In this document: positions 10,672-29,850 of the stretch, piece after piece
Layout: the number at the start of each line of letters is the position of its first letter
How positions within the stretch are numbered: the stretch's first letter is position 1
Assembly (NCBI GenBank): GCA_964365025.1
Contig: CAYIOJ010000002.1
Location: 20,208 to 84,207 of the forward strand
DNA from: an uncultured Gammaproteobacteria bacterium
Lineage (GTDB): Bacteria > Patescibacteriota > Patescibacteriia > Magasanikbacterales > UBA10003
DNA: 64,000 bases
Direction: 5' to 3'
Notes under the pieces: model-generated
Seen by the model: the letters and a program-made list of their open reading frames with translations, nothing else
The model's database searches: none
What the model was told of the DNA's origin: nothing
Translations under genes and position numbers: made by a program

Positions 10672-11679
10672 ATGTTCATCAAAAAAATTGCCATTGATTT
10701 GGGAACCACGAGCGTTCTGGTGCATGTACCCGGACGCGGCGTTGTGATAAATGAACCGTCAGTAGTGGCTATTTCCAGAGACGACCGCAAAATTTTGGCA
10801 GTGGGCGGCGAAGCCAAAGAAATGCTCGGCCGCACGCCCGAGACAATCATTGCCATGCGGCCGCTTAAAGACGGGGTAATCGCCGATTATCGCTCCACCG
10901 AAGCGATGTTGCGTTATTTTATAAACAAAGCCATTGGCGGATTTAGAATTTTGCGTCCGGAAGTGATGGTGGCGGTGCCGGGCGGCATCACCTCCACCGA
11001 GCGCCGCGCCGTGATTGACGCCACCATTGCCGCCGGCGCCCGCGCCGCCTACATTATTAAGGAGCCGATTGTGGCGGCGATTGGCGCGGACATTCCCATT
11101 GGCAGTGCGTCGGGACATTTGATAGTGGACATTGGCGGCGGCACGGCCGAGATGGCGGTGATCTCACTAGGCGGCATTGTGACAAGCAAATCAGTGCGCA
11201 TTGGCGGCAATCGGCTGGACGCGGCCATTCAGGATTACACACGGCGCAAATACGGCCTGGCTATTGGCGAGCGCACGGCCGAAGAAGTTAAAATCGGTAT
11301 TGGCTCGGCCATGTTTTTGGACAAGAAATTGGAAATGGAAATAAAAGGCCGCGATATGGTTTCCGGTTTGCCGCGCATTTTAAATTTAACTTCTGATGAC
11401 ATTACTGAAGCCATTCAGCCGGAATTGGAAGGCATGGTTAATTCTTTGAAAGAACTATTATCTGAAACGCCGCCCGAACTCGCGGCTGACGTTATGGACA
11501 AGGGTATGGTGCTGTCCGGCGGTTCTTCGCAGTTGCGCAACATTGAACAATTATTTTCCAAAGCCACCGGCGTGCCGGCTTTTGTGGCTGATGAGCCGGT
11601 ATTTTGCGTGGTCAAAGGTACTGGCATTGCTTTGGAAAATTTGGAATCTTACAAAAGATCAATTTTGGCGACAAGGTAA
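10672..11679 (+). CDS. mreB: Rod-shape-determining protein MreB
   Basis: Carries IDLGTTSVLV, the actin-fold phosphate and adenosine motifs (DIGGGTAEMAV, LSGGSSQL), at full length. Confidence 0.9.
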   Translation: MFIKKIAIDLGTTSVLVHVPGRGVVINEPSVVAISRDDRKILAVGGEAKEMLGRTPETIIAMRPLKDGVIADYRSTEAMLRYFINKAIGGFRILRPEVMVAVPGGITSTERRAVIDATIAAGARAAYIIKEPIVAAIGADIPIGSASGHLIVDIGGGTAEMAVISLGGIVTSKSVRIGGNRLDAAIQDYTRRKYGLAIGERTAEEVKIGIGSAMFLDKKLEMEIKGRDMVSGLPRILNLTSDDITEAIQPELEGMVNSLKELLSETPPELAADVMDKGMVLSGGSSQLRNIEQLFSKATGVPAFVADEPVFCVVKGTGIALENLESYKRSILATR

Positions 11680-11689
11680 AGGGTTGTCG

Positions 11690-12125
11690 TTCAAAAAAAA
11701 GACCGCCCGAGCCGAAGCCGGGGCGGAGGGAGCGGAATCAGTTGCGATTCCGCAGGTTGGTTTGAGTTGCGCCGTTTGCGGGTGCGGCGCCGGACTGCGT
11801 CACTGCAGACCTTCCTTGTCGCGGTTCTCTCGCGGTTTAAGAGGCTCGAGCGCCCTAGGAGAAGGGCGTCCCCCCCACGAGGTTAGAAACGAGGTAGCAG
11901 CAATCCAGTCCGCACCCGCATTCAGCGACCTTCATGGAAAAAAGCAGCCTATCATGTTTACCGTGCGGTCGCCCCCCGACGAACGCACAGTTATGATAGG
12001 GCGGGTAATTACTTAACCCGCGCCAGTTCCCGGACACGAACGGTCCGTACTCCGCTTCTTCCTTCTTGGCCGTGAAGGTCGGCCGGTTGAGGAATTTCGG
12101 CAGGAGTGTCCTGCCGAAATCTAAA
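11690..12125 (-). ncRNA. Candidate structured ncRNA, possibly RNase P RNA (rnpB). Strand and identity are tentative
   Basis: A ~430-nt stretch with no credible ORF and GC far above the local background. On the minus strand it ends in a GC-rich hairpin followed by a U8 run (11690-11730), like an intrinsic terminator. The minus strand also has GUCCGGG, GCACGGUAAAC and CCCCGGCUUCGG motifs in the order expected of bacterial RNase P RNA, but the canonical GGAAAGUCC is absent. Confidence 0.35.
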
Positions 12126-12232
12126 CGCGCTTTGAGAATACGCTCTCGCCGCGCGCCCAGACCAAGTTTGCGAATATGGCTTATGCTACCATAAATTGAC
12201 TGTGATTGTCAATAAATAAGCTGTGAATATCT

Positions 12233-13393
12233 ATGCTATTATTGATTGACGCTTCGCGCGCCAACAATGAACAAAAAACCGGCGTAGAATGGTACGCTTT
12301 TTTTGTGATTCAGGAATTGAAAAAAATTGTGCCGACGGAGACGCGCGTGGTTCTTTACACCCGCGAGCCGCTCCAGGGTGAGTTGGCGCGATTGCCGTCA
12401 AATTGGCAGGAGCAAGTTCTGCCTTGGCCGCCACGGCGGCTCTGGACGCAGATTCGTTTGTCCTGGGAGATTTGGCGCGTGAAAAGAGGGGCGCGTGATT
12501 ACGCCGCCGGCGCCAAAGAGAAAGAGTTGGCGCTGTTTGTGCCGGCGCATGTTTTGCCTTTAATTTGCCCGATCAATACTTTTATCACCATCCATGATTT
12601 GGGGGGTTTGCGTTTTCCAGCCGGCTATTCTTTGTTTGAAAAATGGTACGCGCGATTTGCCACTTGGTTCGCCCTGCGCCGCGCTACAGTTTTTACTCCG
12701 TCGGAATTCAGCCGTCGAGAGATTATGAACGTGTTTGGCAATGGGAAAATTATAGTCGCGCCCAATGGTTTTGATGATTCAAAATATCATTTGATTGATG
12801 ATAAAAAAGCGATCGGGCAAATTTTGGAAAAATATAATATCCGGCCGCCGTATTTTTTAAGCATCAGCCGGCTGGAAGAAAAGAAAAACACGGTCGGTAT
12901 TGTTGAGGCGTATAAAATTTTTAAAGAAAAAATATCTCTGCAATCCAATTCAGAAAATTATTCACTGGTTCTTTTGGGCAAGCCCGGATTTGGTTATACA
13001 AAAGTGGCGGAGGCGATTAAGAAATCCGGCTATCAGCACACCATTATTATACCCGGGTGGGTAAAGGCCGAGGATGTGCCGTATTTGATGAGTGGCGCCA
13101 GCGCTTTTATTTTCCCGAGTTTTTACGAGGGCTTTGGCATTCCGGTTTTGGAAGCCATGGCTTGCGGCGTTCCGGTAATTGTTTCTAATCGCGCGGCTTT
13201 GCCCGAGGTGGCGGACAACGCCGCTTTGCTCGTTGACCCATACAAGCCCGGGGACATCGCGCGGGCAATGCTGGAAATTGTTTCTTCTCCGGCCTTGAGT
13301 GACGAATTGGTTGGGCGGGGATTGGCTCGGGCACGGGAGTTTGGGTGGGAGAGGGCTGCGGGGAAGATTTGGGGTATTTTGACAAAATACTGA
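12233..13393 (+). CDS. Glycosyltransferase family 4 (GT-B fold)
   Basis: C-terminal EGFGIPVLEAMACGVPVIVS motif and the overall GT4 layout. Confidence 0.75.
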   Translation: MLLLIDASRANNEQKTGVEWYAFFVIQELKKIVPTETRVVLYTREPLQGELARLPSNWQEQVLPWPPRRLWTQIRLSWEIWRVKRGARDYAAGAKEKELALFVPAHVLPLICPINTFITIHDLGGLRFPAGYSLFEKWYARFATWFALRRATVFTPSEFSRREIMNVFGNGKIIVAPNGFDDSKYHLIDDKKAIGQILEKYNIRPPYFLSISRLEEKKNTVGIVEAYKIFKEKISLQSNSENYSLVLLGKPGFGYTKVAEAIKKSGYQHTIIIPGWVKAEDVPYLMSGASAFIFPSFYEGFGIPVLEAMACGVPVIVSNRAALPEVADNAALLVDPYKPGDIARAMLEIVSSPALSDELVGRGLARAREFGWERAAGKIWGILTKY

Positions 13394-13445: not shown

Positions 13446-14657
13446 ATGTATATTAAGCGAAAAATTGAGGATGAAATTCTCAAATATATTAAAAGGCCGG
13501 AAATTATAGCTTTAGTTGGCCCTCGCCAGTGCGGGAAAACAACCACTATTAAAAAAATTTATAACGATTTGAAAAAAGCGATTTTTTTGACCTTTGAGGA
13601 TCAGGATACCCTTAATTTGTTTGAAAATAGTATCAAAAAGTTTATCAGTGTTTATGTCGCCGGCAACGACTATGTTTTTATTGATGAGTTTCAATATGCG
13701 AAAAACGGGGGAAAACTTTTGAAATATATCTACGACATCCACCACACGAAGATAATTATATCCGGGTCATCAGCTCTTGACTTGACTGTCAAGGCGGCGA
13801 AGCATCTGGTGGGCCGGGTGTTTGTTTTGGAAATGCTGCCGTTTGATTTTGGGGAATATCTGCTGTATCGCGACGGAGAATATTATGCCATTTATGAAAA
13901 AAATAAAATTGATTTAAGAAGTATTATCAAAAATTCATTAACCGAAAAACAAAGTAAAATTATAAAAAAATATTTTGAAGAATACGCCCTTTGGGGAGGA
14001 TATCCGGCCGTGGTTTTGTCAAAAACCGAGGAAGAAAAAAAAGAAGTTTTGAAAAATATCTACAATACTTATTTTTTGCGAGATGTGAAAGATATTTTGG
14101 GATTAGTCGATGATTACAAATTAGGAAAATTGATTAAGGCGCTGGCTCTGCAAATCGGTAATATGATTGAATATGGAGAACTAACGGAAGTTTCCGAATT
14201 TTCCTATCATACATTGAAAAAGTATCTTAATTTTTTGAGTAAAACATACATAGCCGGTTTTATTCATCCTTTTTACGGGAACAAAAGGAAAGAAATTGTG
14301 AAGAATAAAAAAGTGTATTTTTTTGATACCGGTCTGCGAAATCACATTGTAAATGATTTTCAGATATTAAGCGCGCGTCAAGATGTTGGCGCTTTGCTTG
14401 AAAATGCTTGTTTTATGCAGTTTATCAAAAACAAATATTCGCCGCAGTATTGGCGGGATAAGAATAAAAACGAAGTAGATTTTATTTTAGACATCGGAGA
14501 CGGAAAATATTCGGCTCTGGAAATAAAGTTAAATCAAAATAAATGTCGCCTGCCCGCCGTTTTTAAAGATAACTATAAAGATTTTTTGACCTTTTGCGCG
14601 TATTTTAATGAAACCAATAAAGAGAAAGAAAATGGTCTGTTTTTACCTCTGCTCTAA
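13446..14657 (+). CDS. AAA+ ATPase with a C-terminal DUF4143-like domain (COG1373-type)
   Basis: Walker A GPRQCGKTT, Walker B VFIDEF, and the C-terminal region typical of DUF4143. The gene is AT-rich. A divergent paralogue lies at 38498-39742. Confidence 0.65.
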   Translation: MYIKRKIEDEILKYIKRPEIIALVGPRQCGKTTTIKKIYNDLKKAIFLTFEDQDTLNLFENSIKKFISVYVAGNDYVFIDEFQYAKNGGKLLKYIYDIHHTKIIISGSSALDLTVKAAKHLVGRVFVLEMLPFDFGEYLLYRDGEYYAIYEKNKIDLRSIIKNSLTEKQSKIIKKYFEEYALWGGYPAVVLSKTEEEKKEVLKNIYNTYFLRDVKDILGLVDDYKLGKLIKALALQIGNMIEYGELTEVSEFSYHTLKKYLNFLSKTYIAGFIHPFYGNKRKEIVKNKKVYFFDTGLRNHIVNDFQILSARQDVGALLENACFMQFIKNKYSPQYWRDKNKNEVDFILDIGDGKYSALEIKLNQNKCRLPAVFKDNYKDFLTFCAYFNETNKEKENGLFLPLL

Positions 14658-25768: not shown

Positions 25769-25835
25769 AAAGCGCCATTGACAAAATACCCCGCGCCATT
25801 TAAGGCACGGGATATTTTTATCTTTTTGACAAAGA

Positions 25836-26036
25836 TTAAGCGCGAGTGACATTCACTGCGCGAGGTCCTTTGTCAGACTGTTCCTCATCAAAGTTGACCG
25901 CGTCGCCTTGTTTCAATTCAGAGAATTGAATTCCGACCAAACCGGTTTCATGAAAGAAGAGATCTTTTACGCCACCGTCAGGTGTAATAAAGCCAAAATG
26001 CTTTTCAGCAATTATTGTTTTAATAGTACCTTTCAT
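25836..26036 (-). CDS. cspA: Cold-shock protein, CspA family
   Basis: MKGTIKTIIAEKHFGFITPDGGVKDLFFHETGL contains the RNP1 and RNP2 motifs. Confidence 0.9.
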   Translation of the reverse strand: MKGTIKTIIAEKHFGFITPDGGVKDLFFHETGLVGIQFSELKQGDAVNFDEEQSDKGPRAVNVTRA

Positions 26037-26146
26037 ATTGGTAATAAAAATAAAATTTCTATCCGTTTAAGAAAACCGACCAATTTTCTAAGGATGTGGA
26101 TATTATACCACAAACGCAGGGAATTGTCAACAGCCAGCTCATTTCC

Positions 26147-26175
26147 TTGACAAAAACGCCATTTTGTGCTATACT
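26147..26175 (+). promoter_or_regulatory. Sigma70-like promoter (TTGACA-17-TATACT) with a ~90-nt 5' UTR before the DEAD-box helicase gene
   Basis: TTGACA lies at 26147-26152 and TATACT at 26170-26175. The leader is long, as in cold-shock genes, and shares the intergenic region with the divergent csp gene. Confidence 0.5.
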
Positions 26176-26264
26176 TGTATATTCTGGCTGTATTAAGCAG
26201 CCAACGACTCGGATCTCTTGTGTCATTATGTGTGGCCCAGCAGAAACTCGGGTCACCAATTAAT

Positions 26265-27536: not shown

Positions 27537-27696
27537 GTATATTTTCGACATTGGTGTATGGCTCATTCGGCGGCAGACCCTTGTTCGCTTGACTTTTGCG
27601 ATGGCTTTTATTAAGATAGCGAATAACTGCTTGCTGAATTCAGCGTCAAGACGGCGTTGGAAAAAGCGAGCGTAGATGTTCAAGAAGGAGTATCCA

Positions 27697-28149
27697 ATGG
27701 CCTTGATTGATCCCAAGCGTGCGGCTGTAAATGCGGTGTTGCCGGAAGCTCTCAGAATGGGATTGACAAACAAGTCTCCCTGGCCAACTTCCAACACTCG
27801 TGTCCAGTGGCATTTTTCCGTGGATGGTGGCAAGCAAGTTTCTCTGTTCTACATCAGTCAGCCATTTGGCGGAGGATTGGGGCCACAAGACAGGGTGGCG
27901 GTATTTGTCGATGTTGATGAGTACGGTCAAGGTGGATTGGCGGAAAAGTGCGCGCGCGATAAATTGCTTTCGGCCGATATTGGCCAAGTCAGCGTTGCCG
28001 TTCTCTTGCGTTGGGCCACTGACGCGGAACGCGAAAGCGGCGGAGGACTTCGCGCAGCCATGACACTGCTCGAACCGAACGACGTGGGCACTGATGGATG
28101 CTGCTTCCGCATTGTCGGCATCACCTCGCTGTTCAACTTCGCGGGCTAG
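27697..28149 (+). CDS. Hypothetical protein inside GC-rich island 1
   Basis: 150 aa with a strong AAGGAG Shine-Dalgarno 7 nt upstream. GC is about 55% against a ~40% background. No family was recognised. Confidence 0.45.
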   Translation: MALIDPKRAAVNAVLPEALRMGLTNKSPWPTSNTRVQWHFSVDGGKQVSLFYISQPFGGGLGPQDRVAVFVDVDEYGQGGLAEKCARDKLLSADIGQVSVAVLLRWATDAERESGGGLRAAMTLLEPNDVGTDGCCFRIVGITSLFNFAG

Positions 28150-28190: not shown

Positions 28191-28496
28191 ATGGGGCGAG
28201 CCAAATTGGCTAGTACTGGAGTGCGCGGCCGCAGTGATGGGCGCGTGGAGAGAAGGATGAAGGAGTGCAAGTGCGTCCAGCCCTGTGCCGACATGAGCGG
28301 CGTCTGCCCGACCGCGCAAAAGCCGTGCGAGCGCGCAGTGCGTGTCGCGTCGGCGCGGCACGCGGTGAGCGCTTCCCACCCGTTCGAAGACAGTGGGCCG
28401 TGGATTTGCCAGGCCTGTGGCACTCAAAATAATCTCGGCGACGATGTCTGTTTTTCCTGTCGCGTGGTGTGCGGTAGCGTCCACGACATGCCCTGA
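28191..28496 (+). CDS. Cys-rich zinc-ribbon hypothetical protein inside GC-rich island 1
   Basis: 101 aa with an AAGGAGG Shine-Dalgarno site. Cys pairs CxC..C, CPTAQKPC and CQAC...CFSC suggest zinc ribbons. Confidence 0.45.
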   Translation: MGRAKLASTGVRGRSDGRVERRMKECKCVQPCADMSGVCPTAQKPCERAVRVASARHAVSASHPFEDSGPWICQACGTQNNLGDDVCFSCRVVCGSVHDMP

Positions 28497-28638: not shown

Positions 28639-29850
28639 ATGATCTATCTTAGTAAGATACTTGGAGCAAAAATCAAAGATAGCGCCGACCAGACCGTTGG
28701 TGTTTTGAAAGATGTGTTGGTAAAACCAACACCCGGCGAGTATTCGCCTTTGGAGGCCTTGTTGGTAAAATCAAAAAAGAAGCGTCAACATTTCTACATT
28801 CCATATCACTATGTGGAAAATTTGGCGGCCGATGAAATAACTTTGAAAACTTTGGAAGATAAAATTATTGATTACGCGGCCGAGGCCGGGGACATACTTC
28901 TCCTGCGCGATGTTTTGGACCAGCAGATTGTGGATACGGCCGGCGCGCGAGTGGTGCGGGTCAATGATTTACAGATTGGAGAGGTGGAGGGCGAGATGTG
29001 CGTGTTGGGAATTGACATCAGCACGCGAGGGCTTTTACGTCGTCTGGGCCTGACGAAAACAGGCCTTTTCAATTGGCTTCACGTGAATCTTATTGATTGG
29101 CAACAAGCCCAGCCAATGCGCGGAACTTTAAAACTAGAAACTTTATCCAAAGATTTGGTAAAATTACATCCGGCGGATTTGGCCAATATCGTAGAAAAAT
29201 TAAACATCAAGCAGGGTCGGGCCTTGGTGGAGGCCATGGACACGAAAACAGCGGCCAAAATTTTGGAAGAAATGAATCCGCGCGTGCAGAAAATTTTGGT
29301 GCAGGCTTTAGGGCCGGCCAAAGCGGCAAAAATTTCCGAACGGATGTCCATTGACGAATTAGTGGATTTGATAAAGTTGTTGCCATATGACGAGGCTAAG
29401 GAAGTTTACTCAACCTTCCAAAGCGGCCGCAAGAGCAAGTTGGAAAAATTATTGACCTATAAAGACGATACGGCCGGCGGGTTAATGACTACGGAATTTA
29501 TCGGCGCCCTGCCCAGCTGGACAGTACAGCAGGTAATTGATGAAATAAAACGCACATCAGAATCATTTCGGTCAATTTTATATATTTATGTTTCCGACGA
29601 CAACGGAATTTATAAAGGCGTGGTTTCTCTGCGTCGTCTTTTGACATCTGAGCCGACGGATAAAATTGATAAAGTGATGAAAAAAGCCAAACGCCTGCCC
29701 TGCGCCAAAGTACATCAAAAAATCAAAGAAGTGGGAAAATTAATGACCAAATACGATTTGAATTCAGTGGCAGTGGTGGACCACCATCATCGTATTCTGG
29801 GCGTGGTGACGGTTGATGATGTGATGCGTCACTTTTTCCCGCACGCGTAA
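28639..29850 (+). CDS. Soluble MgtE-N/CBS-pair protein with an N-terminal PRC-barrel-like domain and no transmembrane region
   Basis: MgtE N-terminal helical domain followed by two CBS motifs (YVSDDNGIYKGVVSLRRLL and VVDHHHRILGVVTVDDV). The membrane domain of MgtE is absent. Confidence 0.65.
   Translation: MIYLSKILGAKIKDSADQTVGVLKDVLVKPTPGEYSPLEALLVKSKKKRQHFYIPYHYVENLAADEITLKTLEDKIIDYAAEAGDILLLRDVLDQQIVDTAGARVVRVNDLQIGEVEGEMCVLGIDISTRGLLRRLGLTKTGLFNWLHVNLIDWQQAQPMRGTLKLETLSKDLVKLHPADLANIVEKLNIKQGRALVEAMDTKTAAKILEEMNPRVQKILVQALGPAKAAKISERMSIDELVDLIKLLPYDEAKEVYSTFQSGRKSKLEKLLTYKDDTAGGLMTTEFIGALPSWTVQQVIDEIKRTSESFRSILYIYVSDDNGIYKGVVSLRRLLTSEPTDKIDKVMKKAKRLPCAKVHQKIKEVGKLMTKYDLNSVAVVDHHHRILGVVTVDDVMRHFFPHA

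Follow-up and report, generated by a model that had tools for sequence, protein, structure and literature searches.

The gap between the cell-shape gene mreB and the adjoining glycosyltransferase gene of an uncultured Candidatus Magasanikbacteria (CPR/Patescibacteria) bacterium likely harbors an independent accessory gene, whose product would be a new structured RNA acting through its fold. The gap lies within what we call the window, the whole stretch of 64,000 nucleotides that was analyzed. The MreB protein encoded in the window is 96-97% identical to those of the MAGs JACROI01 and DOQH01, and it has an exact match in NCBI entry MEK9183075.1. An earlier note on this DNA had suggested RNase P RNA as one possibility for the region and a different large ncRNA as the alternative; it is the alternative that provides the best reading, namely an undescribed structured RNA gene that matches no known family. 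Judged from its sequence, the element is best read as belonging to a previously undescribed, lineage-restricted RNA family, which with two independent sequences is a lead and not an established class.

A GC-rich non-coding block with predicted expression signals

The mreB gene is encoded on the plus strand (10672-11679, with the TAA stop codon at 11677-11679), as is the GT4 glycosyltransferase gene that follows it (12233-13393, with the ATG at 12233). The entire gap between this stop codon and this start codon is filled by an inserted block of 552 nt (11680..12231). Further neighbors are a DUF4012 gene upstream and an AT-rich AAA_14/DUF4143 ATPase gene downstream. The GC-rich non-coding block that had been described at 11690-12125 is real and slightly larger than described. 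Its GC content is 0.56, and that of the predicted transcript is 0.59, compared to a window mean of 0.444 (sd 0.047 in 490-nt windows). The description of this value as far above the background holds insofar as the excess amounts to about +3 sd, but two coding stretches, mreB and a region at about 28 kb, are equally GC-rich. As the earlier note had claimed, the block does not encode a plausible protein: the internal ORFs are short or are out-of-frame overlaps of mreB, and none has a Pfam match; no protein similarity was found for the block in any reading frame; and many of the indels in the alignment to the homologous copy described below are not multiples of three.

Both of the minus-strand signals that had been proposed are present. 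The GC-rich hairpin with U8 forms an intrinsic terminator at 11726..11693 (11693..11726 in window order, with the hairpin at 11703-11726), which reads CCGCCCCGGC-UUCG-GCUCGGGCGG, followed by UC and U8. The TTGACA-like promoter expected near 12200 was found as a strong sigma-70-type promoter, TTGACA-18-TAGCAT, at 12212..12183; the -35 hexamer TTGACA (12212..12207) and the TG-extended -10 hexamer TAGCAT (12188..12183) are separated by an 18-nt spacer and together give 10/12 matches. The location of this promoter places the 5' end of the RNA near 12177, about 50 nt past the right-hand limit given earlier. From the positions of promoter and terminator we therefore predict a minus-strand RNA of about 485 nt that extends from about 12177 to about 11693 and has a GC content of 0.59. 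As predicted from the sequence, a sigma-70-type promoter and, on the same strand, an intrinsic terminator surround a non-coding conserved fold, as in an independent ncRNA unit.

The promoter region of the RNA also contains the upstream copy of a 19-nt direct repeat (12182-12200), located 50 nt before the start of the glycosyltransferase gene. The second copy, identical at 15 of the 19 positions, is found at that start (12232-12250, TATGCTA..ATTGAC). The -10 hexamer TAGCAT is the reverse complement of ATGCTA in this repeat. The repeat was not seen in the homologous locus, and it may be due to chance or may represent a recombination scar.

A diverged homologue in a second lineage

A homologue of the block is located at the same mreB-glycosyltransferase junction in a second Magasanikbacteria lineage (L087, Logan SRR22388286), where the gap measures 544 nt. 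Compared to the window, the glycosyltransferase of L087 is 78% identical in protein and its mreB 89.6% identical in nucleotides; the element itself is 72-73% identical over two BLAST segments and 65-79% identical in global alignments. A second assembly of the species in the window (L081, Logan ERR3858130) is 100% identical, block included.

The minus-strand promoter is found in L087 as TTGACA-17-TATATT (11/12 matches) at the equivalent place, 18-20 nt before helix H1 of the fold described below. The terminator is found as CCGUCCCAGC-UUCU-GCUCGGACGG plus U6, in which one pair is compensatory (C-G to U-A). The recurrence of promoter and terminator hairpin in L087 argues that the signals in the window are not due to chance. 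The two copies share invariant blocks of 11-23 nt (CAAAGCGCGUUUAG, UUUCGGCAGG, CCUUCACGGCC, UCGGGGGG, UCCAUGAAGGUCGC, GCGGGUGCGGAC, GUCCGGCGCCGCACCCG, and CGGAAUCGCAACUGAUUCCGCUC), and outside these blocks the divergence is about equal to that of the third codon positions of the glycosyltransferase gene (63% identical). The presence of invariant blocks amid divergence near the synonymous level indicates purifying selection on specific parts of the element.

These data bear on the alternative that the block has no present function and is left over from the decay of a former gene or of foreign GC-rich DNA. Such a remnant would be compatible with a GC content above the genome mean, with the element being very rare in public data, and with the unrelated cargo that the junction holds in L003, L085, and L120. 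However, the promoter, the terminator, the invariant blocks of up to 23 nt, and the base pairing were kept in spite of divergence near the synonymous level, and the remnant of a gene is also contradicted by the lack of protein similarity in any reading frame. A functionless remnant thus strikes us as quite improbable.

Predicted fold of the RNA

The earlier note had listed a large structured RNA on the minus strand as a candidate. This candidate is borne out by the conserved signals, by the z-scores for the fold and the alignment fold, and by compensatory changes. In single-sequence folding against shuffled sequences, the window copy has a z-score of -5.74 for the minus strand and -3.23 for the plus strand, and the L087 copy one of -4.04. 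For the two sequences together, RNAalifold with a column-shuffle control resulted in z-scores of -5.9 (minus strand) and -4.0 (plus strand). The RNAalifold consensus of the window and L087 copies contains 103 pairs, of which 13 were changed on both sides with pairing kept and 0 were broken, the structure having been derived from the same two sequences on which the covariation was scored. When the 3' partners were slid by 1-3 columns as a control, the double-changed pairs dropped to 0-3 and the paired cells to 35-46%, and 0/500 shuffles equaled the observed covariation values. The check for covariation with homologous loci, which the earlier note had called for, thus reveals compensatory changes that keep helices, but it draws on one diverged homologue only; L081 is identical to the window, so that there are only two independent sequences and the covariation statistics are weak.

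The outer stem of helix H6 as well as helices H8 and H9 were registered by hand because MAFFT had misaligned them, their sequences being completely different in the two copies; the MAFFT alignment is also off at H2. In the hand-registered count, which comprises 17 helices and pseudoknots with 128 pairs, 89 pairs are unchanged, 12 have a compatible change on one side, 20 show compensatory changes, and the remaining 7 lack pairing in at least one copy.

The predicted helices are given here in the direction of transcription, all on the minus strand. H1 (12118..12163) is a G-U-rich stem of 12-13 bp around a small 4-bp hairpin and holds the invariant CAAAGCGCGUUUAG; two of its pairs are compensatory relative to L087 (U-A to C-G and A-U to G-C). 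Five conserved G-U pairs in H1 can form on the minus strand only, since the plus strand would give C-A mismatches. H2 (12094..12120) is a perfect hairpin of 11-12 bp, UUUCGGCAGGA-CAC-UCCUGCCGAAA, with an invariant stem and a loop that is 7 nt longer in L087. In H3 (12068..12084, GGCCG-ACCUUCA-CGGCC) the loop sequence CCUUCA is invariant. This loop may pair with UGAAGG at 11928-11934 to form a candidate pseudoknot, PK-a, which would comprise 7 bp in the window copy and 6 bp in the L087 copy. The sequence that would pair with the H3 loop is part of an invariant block that is predicted to be single stranded, UCCAUGAAGGUCGC (11925..11938). The H4 hairpin (12029..12049), which is followed by an invariant GGAAC, has one compensatory pair (C-G to A-U), and one of its pairs is broken in L087. 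The H5 hairpin (12001..12021) carries a conserved GUAA tetraloop of the GNRA type that is identical in both copies, and one pair of its stem compensates (A-U to G-C).

The H6 hairpin (11948..12000; about 21 bp) is long and irregular, and its tip carries the invariant UCGGGGGG. Its outer stem reads CCUAUCAU/AUGAUAGG in the window and CAGCACAC/GUGUGCUG in L087, with 5/8 pairs changed on both sides. The G-run at the tip of H6 may form a second candidate pseudoknot, PK-b, with GCUCCC at 11727-11732, just after H11 (GCUCYC across both copies; consensus helix 9, columns 230-235 with 485-490). A 3' domain (11770..11927) is closed by CGCUG/CGGCG, an invariant 10-bp stem (GCGGGUGCGG/CCGCACCCGC), and a 9-bp stem (CUGGAUUGC/GCAGUCCGG), and in its interior contains the hairpins H9 (loop UCUNACCU) and H10 (GCCCU/AGGGC). 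The 9-bp stem, H8, reads CUGGACGCU/AGCGUCCGG in L087, with 3 compensatory pairs; H9, in the hand-registered alignment, has 4. H11 (11730..11752, CGGAAUC-GCAACU-GAUUCCG) is part of a 23-nt invariant block and is identical in L087.

H11 is also present in a plus-strand terminator-like site at 11732-11753, where a G/U-rich tail comes after the hairpin. In the plus-strand reading, H11 and this tail may be the transcription terminator of mreB, and H11 could be conserved for this role instead of for the RNA. Extended to the whole block, this leads to the explanation that the insertion is a cis-acting intergenic cassette, in which back-to-back terminators and divergent promoters uncouple the glycosyltransferase gene from mreB while the fold is incidental. 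The minus-strand transcript would then act, if at all, by transcriptional interference or by antisense pairing with read-through from mreB. In its favor, mreB and the glycosyltransferase gene are directly adjacent or overlapping in the relatives (TAATATG), where co-transcription of the two is probable; H11 with its G/U-rich tail is terminator-like on the plus strand in both copies; and in L087 the glycosyltransferase ATG is preceded, at 17-24 nt, by a promoter-like site on the plus strand, TTAAGA-16-TATAGT. However, about 100 nt would be enough for a terminator and promoter pair, compared to 485 nt here. Compensatory change keeps long-range helices across the whole length of the RNA, the GNRA loop and the strand-specific G-U pairs are conserved, and internal invariant loops (CCUUCA/UGAAGG and UCGGGGGG) have no obvious role in cis. 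We regard the cis-acting cassette as unlikely and continue to favor a gene for an RNA that acts through its fold.

Comparison to RNase P RNA

The element is not RNase P RNA. The possibility raised in the earlier note is contradicted by the lack of a covariance-model match, by the absence of the conserved regions, and by the identity of the proposed 3' strand of P4, which is the terminator. We scanned with the Rfam 15 models at the gathering score (window) and at E≤10 with permissive filters (the region, a tighter region, the whole window, and the L087 copy), settings under which families scoring as low as 9 bits were listed. The suggested check against RNaseP_bact_a, RNaseP_bact_b, tmRNA, OLE, GOLLD, ROOL, and HEARO was run on both strands and returned no match in the window copy; the same families are also without a match in the L087 copy at E≤10. 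The Rfam matches in the element at E≤10 are noise of 9-18 bits (miRNA, sRNA, CRISPR-DR, and a ctRNA on the terminator).

The conserved strings of RNase P RNA, GGAAAGUCC (CR-I), ACAGAAA, GGGUGAAA, GGUAAGAG, and ACAGAA..CGGCUUA (CR-V), occur zero times on either strand of the window copy and of L087, which agrees with the earlier remark that the universally conserved sequence is not intact. The three motifs that had been quoted as occurring in RNase P order are all present in the window, but two of them are not conserved in L087, where GUCCGGG reads GUCCUGG and GCACGGUAAAC is largely deleted, and the third is the terminator hairpin. The proposed 3' strand of P4, CCCCGGCUUCGG, consists of the loop and stem of the terminator, and the corresponding sequence in L087 is UCCCAGCUUCUG. 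Here the G to A change fits the hairpin (G-U to A-U), whereas the G to U change in the proposed 5' strand is out of register. The long-range P4 helix is thus not found: the changes in L087 compensate within the terminator hairpin, without covariation with the proposed 5' strand. Similarly, P1, the pairing between the 5' and 3' ends, is absent; the 3' end is the terminator directly after H11, and the 5' leaders of the two copies are unrelated and without a conserved complement.

RNase P RNAs of CPR bacteria can be diverged and missed at default thresholds (PMC8172020). Because of this divergence, and because detection sometimes requires lowered thresholds (PMC8172020), we sought a positive control. 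Another Patescibacteria genome (L069:4056-4536, plus strand) encodes a canonical class A RNase P RNA of 481 nt that scores 243 bits, with all conserved regions intact and large insertions in P3, P9, and P12. This rnpB gene directly follows mreB and precedes a WbaP-like sugar transferase gene and a glycosyltransferase gene; the designation of the L069 record as 'uncultured Gammaproteobacteria' looks like a mislabel. The L069 rnpB thus serves as a positive control for finding rnpB in CPR genomes. A search of the window with nhmmer and the L069 rnpB as query returned no match, and the Rfam scan found no other rnpB within the 64-kb window.

We consider it very improbable that the element is an rnpB diverged beyond recognition. 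Several features recall class A RNase P RNA (RF00010): the element would encode a stable RNA of similar length (about 485 nt compared to 481 nt in L069, and about 480 nt in CPR), GC-rich relative to the genome, with multiple helices and long-range pairings; the bona fide rnpB of L069 holds the equivalent place just downstream of mreB; the divergence of CPR RNase P RNAs could explain a missed match; and GUCCGGG, GCACGGUAAAC, and CCCGGCUU are short matches to what we take to be E. coli-type RNase P strings. However, neither copy gave an RNase P match at E≤10 under settings that listed 9-18 bit matches to other families. The conserved-region motifs are absent from both strands of both copies, and the nhmmer search with the L069 rnpB was null; the proposed P4 does not covary, its 3' strand being the terminator; and GCACGGUAAAC is largely missing from L087. 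The element is furthermore encoded in the orientation opposite to the rnpB of L069, and it has an accessory distribution at the junction, where it is absent in at least 10 close lineages. An essential housekeeping RNA would not be expected to be missing from most close relatives, as the element is at this junction, the place that was examined. As this case shows, a terminator hairpin can give rise to short string matches to RNase P.

Comparison to other known RNA and mobile element classes

ARAGORN did not find a tmRNA in the window or in L087, and Rfam lists no tmRNA match in either copy. The OLE, GOLLD, ROOL, HEARO, and raiA models are not listed at E≤10 in either copy. A group I or group II intron was rejected, as there is no Rfam match and the element is intergenic with its own promoter and terminator. 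A MITE or IS-derived element was rejected as well: terminal inverted repeats are lacking, neither the window nor the 135 loci compared contain another copy, and the only flanking repeat at the block, the 15/19 match of the glycosyltransferase start 50 nt upstream, is not found at both ends.

The element might nevertheless be a very diverged member of one of these known large or mobile classes (tmRNA, OLE, GOLLD, ROOL, HEARO, or an ORF-less group I or II intron), beyond the reach of the Rfam models. CPR sequences are often far from the Rfam seed alignments, and, by analogy, the large size and sporadic accessory distribution resemble GOLLD, ROOL, and HEARO. Against this, none of the tmRNA, OLE, GOLLD, ROOL, HEARO, and intron models matched either copy at E≤10, and ARAGORN called no tmRNA. 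There is no adjacent gene for IscB, TnpB, a reverse transcriptase, or an integrase; unlike an intron, the element is located outside any host gene with its own promoter and terminator; and it lacks terminal inverted repeats and a second copy in the window. Membership in a known class is improbable in our assessment, and an undescribed RNA remains the preferred reading.

GOLLD, ROOL, and OLE are stand-alone, ribozyme-sized, intricately folded RNAs that have their own expression signals and a patchy distribution. The likeness of our element to GOLLD (RF01998), ROOL (RF03087), and OLE (RF01071) is one in kind only. The element differs from them in having no Rfam sequence or structure match, and in being located in a CPR chromosome at a recombination hot spot between envelope genes, without a prophage context or an oapA-like partner gene. 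With HEARO, the omega RNA of IscB (RF02033), it has in common that a structured non-coding RNA can be present as an insertion when sister genomes are compared, but the element has no neighboring nuclease gene, transposon ends, or Rfam match, and it is present in a single copy.

Two further sites in the window scored below the Rfam gathering thresholds. A tRNA-Sec-like match on the minus strand at 1009-1081 (35.3 bits; gathering score 47) was not called by ARAGORN and may be an unusual long-arm tRNA or noise. A full-length match to the cspA thermoregulator on the minus strand at 25783-26206 scored 39 bits (gathering score 78).

The junction in related lineages

In L001, L002, and L010 the mreB stop codon is followed by the glycosyltransferase ATG within 0-4 nt (TAA[0-4 nt]TATG), and the 552-nt block is absent. 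L001 and L002 are 86-87% identical to the window in mreB and 80-82% identical in the glycosyltransferase gene (nucleotides). The junction is also empty, with gaps of 0-81 nt, in L082-84, L086, L121, L122, L124, L134, and L135. Counting at the mreB-glycosyltransferase junction only, at least 10 related lineages have an empty junction. In three sister lineages the same junction is occupied by unrelated cargo: a 447-aa ORF in L003 (4011-5354), ORFs of 70 and 215 aa in L085 (1408-2257), and an AT-rich stretch in L120 (1-151). The three cargo ORFs of L003 and L085 have no Pfam or PADLOC match. The unrelated cargo in these sister lineages points to a small recombination hot spot at this junction.

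The clade is roughly star-like, with mreB being 82-90% identical in nucleotides, and the sequence directly flanking the element is mosaic between lineages. Between the window and L087, identity is 97% over the last 150 nt of mreB, compared to 85-91% further upstream. The glycosyltransferase gene of L087 is 90-97% identical to that of L120, a lineage without the element, beyond about nucleotide 200, and 79-84% identical in the first 200 nt; for the first 150 nt of this gene in L087 the closest match is the window (87%). The mosaic flanks fit an exchange of junction cassettes by homologous recombination in the conserved flanks. Transposition does not fit, because terminal inverted repeats and a second copy are lacking.

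The position of the ATPase gene looks like a second variable spot adjoining the junction. In the window this gene (13446-14657) has a GC content of about 0.30 and matches the PADLOC candidate defence family PDC-S01 (E 7e-90). In L082-84 the glycosyltransferase gene is followed by a gene of the same length (404 aa), the likeness being by length and position only. L087 and L124 are without the ATPase gene and have holB directly after the glycosyltransferase gene.

Searches for further members of the family returned little. The contigs reached through homologues of the glycosyltransferase and of MreB contained, apart from the identical L081, one diverged homologue (L087); the remainder had empty junctions or unrelated cargo. 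BLASTN in distant mode of the element against phage and plasmid collections found no match, blastn and nhmmer against 80 mreB loci from GTDB species representatives found none, and no further copy was present in the 135 loci compared. In JGI metagenomes the invariant 18-mer GGAATCGCAACTGATTCC had 28 matches, all of them chance matches within coding sequence, and four patterns from the invariant blocks returned none or chance matches only in IMG/VR. The family is therefore rare in what was searched.

Three candidates for additional copies were rejected. The GC-rich region near 28 kb of the window contains two small protein genes. These GC-rich ORFs (27676-28149, 157 aa, and 28191-28496, Cys-rich, 101 aa) have strong Shine-Dalgarno sequences, appear to be coding, and are located between a terminator at about 27510 and a gene that starts at 28639. 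The gap downstream of mreB in L069 holds the real rnpB described above. The gap downstream of mreB in L027, another Patescibacteria genome, contains a different, repeat-rich sequence. This gap (L027:4009-4376, 368 nt) is GC-rich, and has folding z-scores of -6.6 and -5.0. The motifs GUCAUUGCGAGC / GUCAUCCUGAGCGGAG recur within the gap, which would appear to hold a repeat element that is unrelated to the RNA in the window.

Implications

The proposed gene is simple in its organization. Transcription would start at the minus-strand promoter, yield an RNA of about 485 nt, and end at the intrinsic terminator. The RNA would act in trans via its folded shape, as a ribozyme-sized scaffold or as a component of a ribonucleoprotein and not as a simple antisense RNA. 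This reading is based on a predicted fold of about 11 helices that includes a GNRA tetraloop and two candidate pseudoknots. The accessory cassette would be gained, lost, or swapped by homologous recombination in the mreB and glycosyltransferase flanks, at a small hot spot that holds different cargo in sister lineages.

To our knowledge, very few of the known bacterial RNA classes exceed 400 nt and have complex conserved folds, and those that have been characterized are ribozymes, ribonucleoprotein cores, or large RNA assemblies. By analogy, the size and complexity of the predicted RNA would be comparable to those of ribozymes and of the orphan RNAs OLE, GOLLD, and ROOL; in kind it may be most like the latter three, while being a member of none. 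On balance, and with somewhat less confidence than we have in the RNA gene itself, we lean toward the element representing a new class of accessory RNAs in CPR/Patescibacteria that are large (about 490 nt) and intricately folded. Such an RNA would travel from one related genome to another as a minimal cassette of promoter, RNA, and terminator, by recombination in the conserved flanks provided by mreB and the cell-envelope glycosyltransferase gene. The genomes of CPR bacteria are tiny and leave little space for sequence that is not essential. The presence of an accessory 485-nt RNA under selection in two lineages with such genomes therefore suggests a real, possibly lifestyle-related function.
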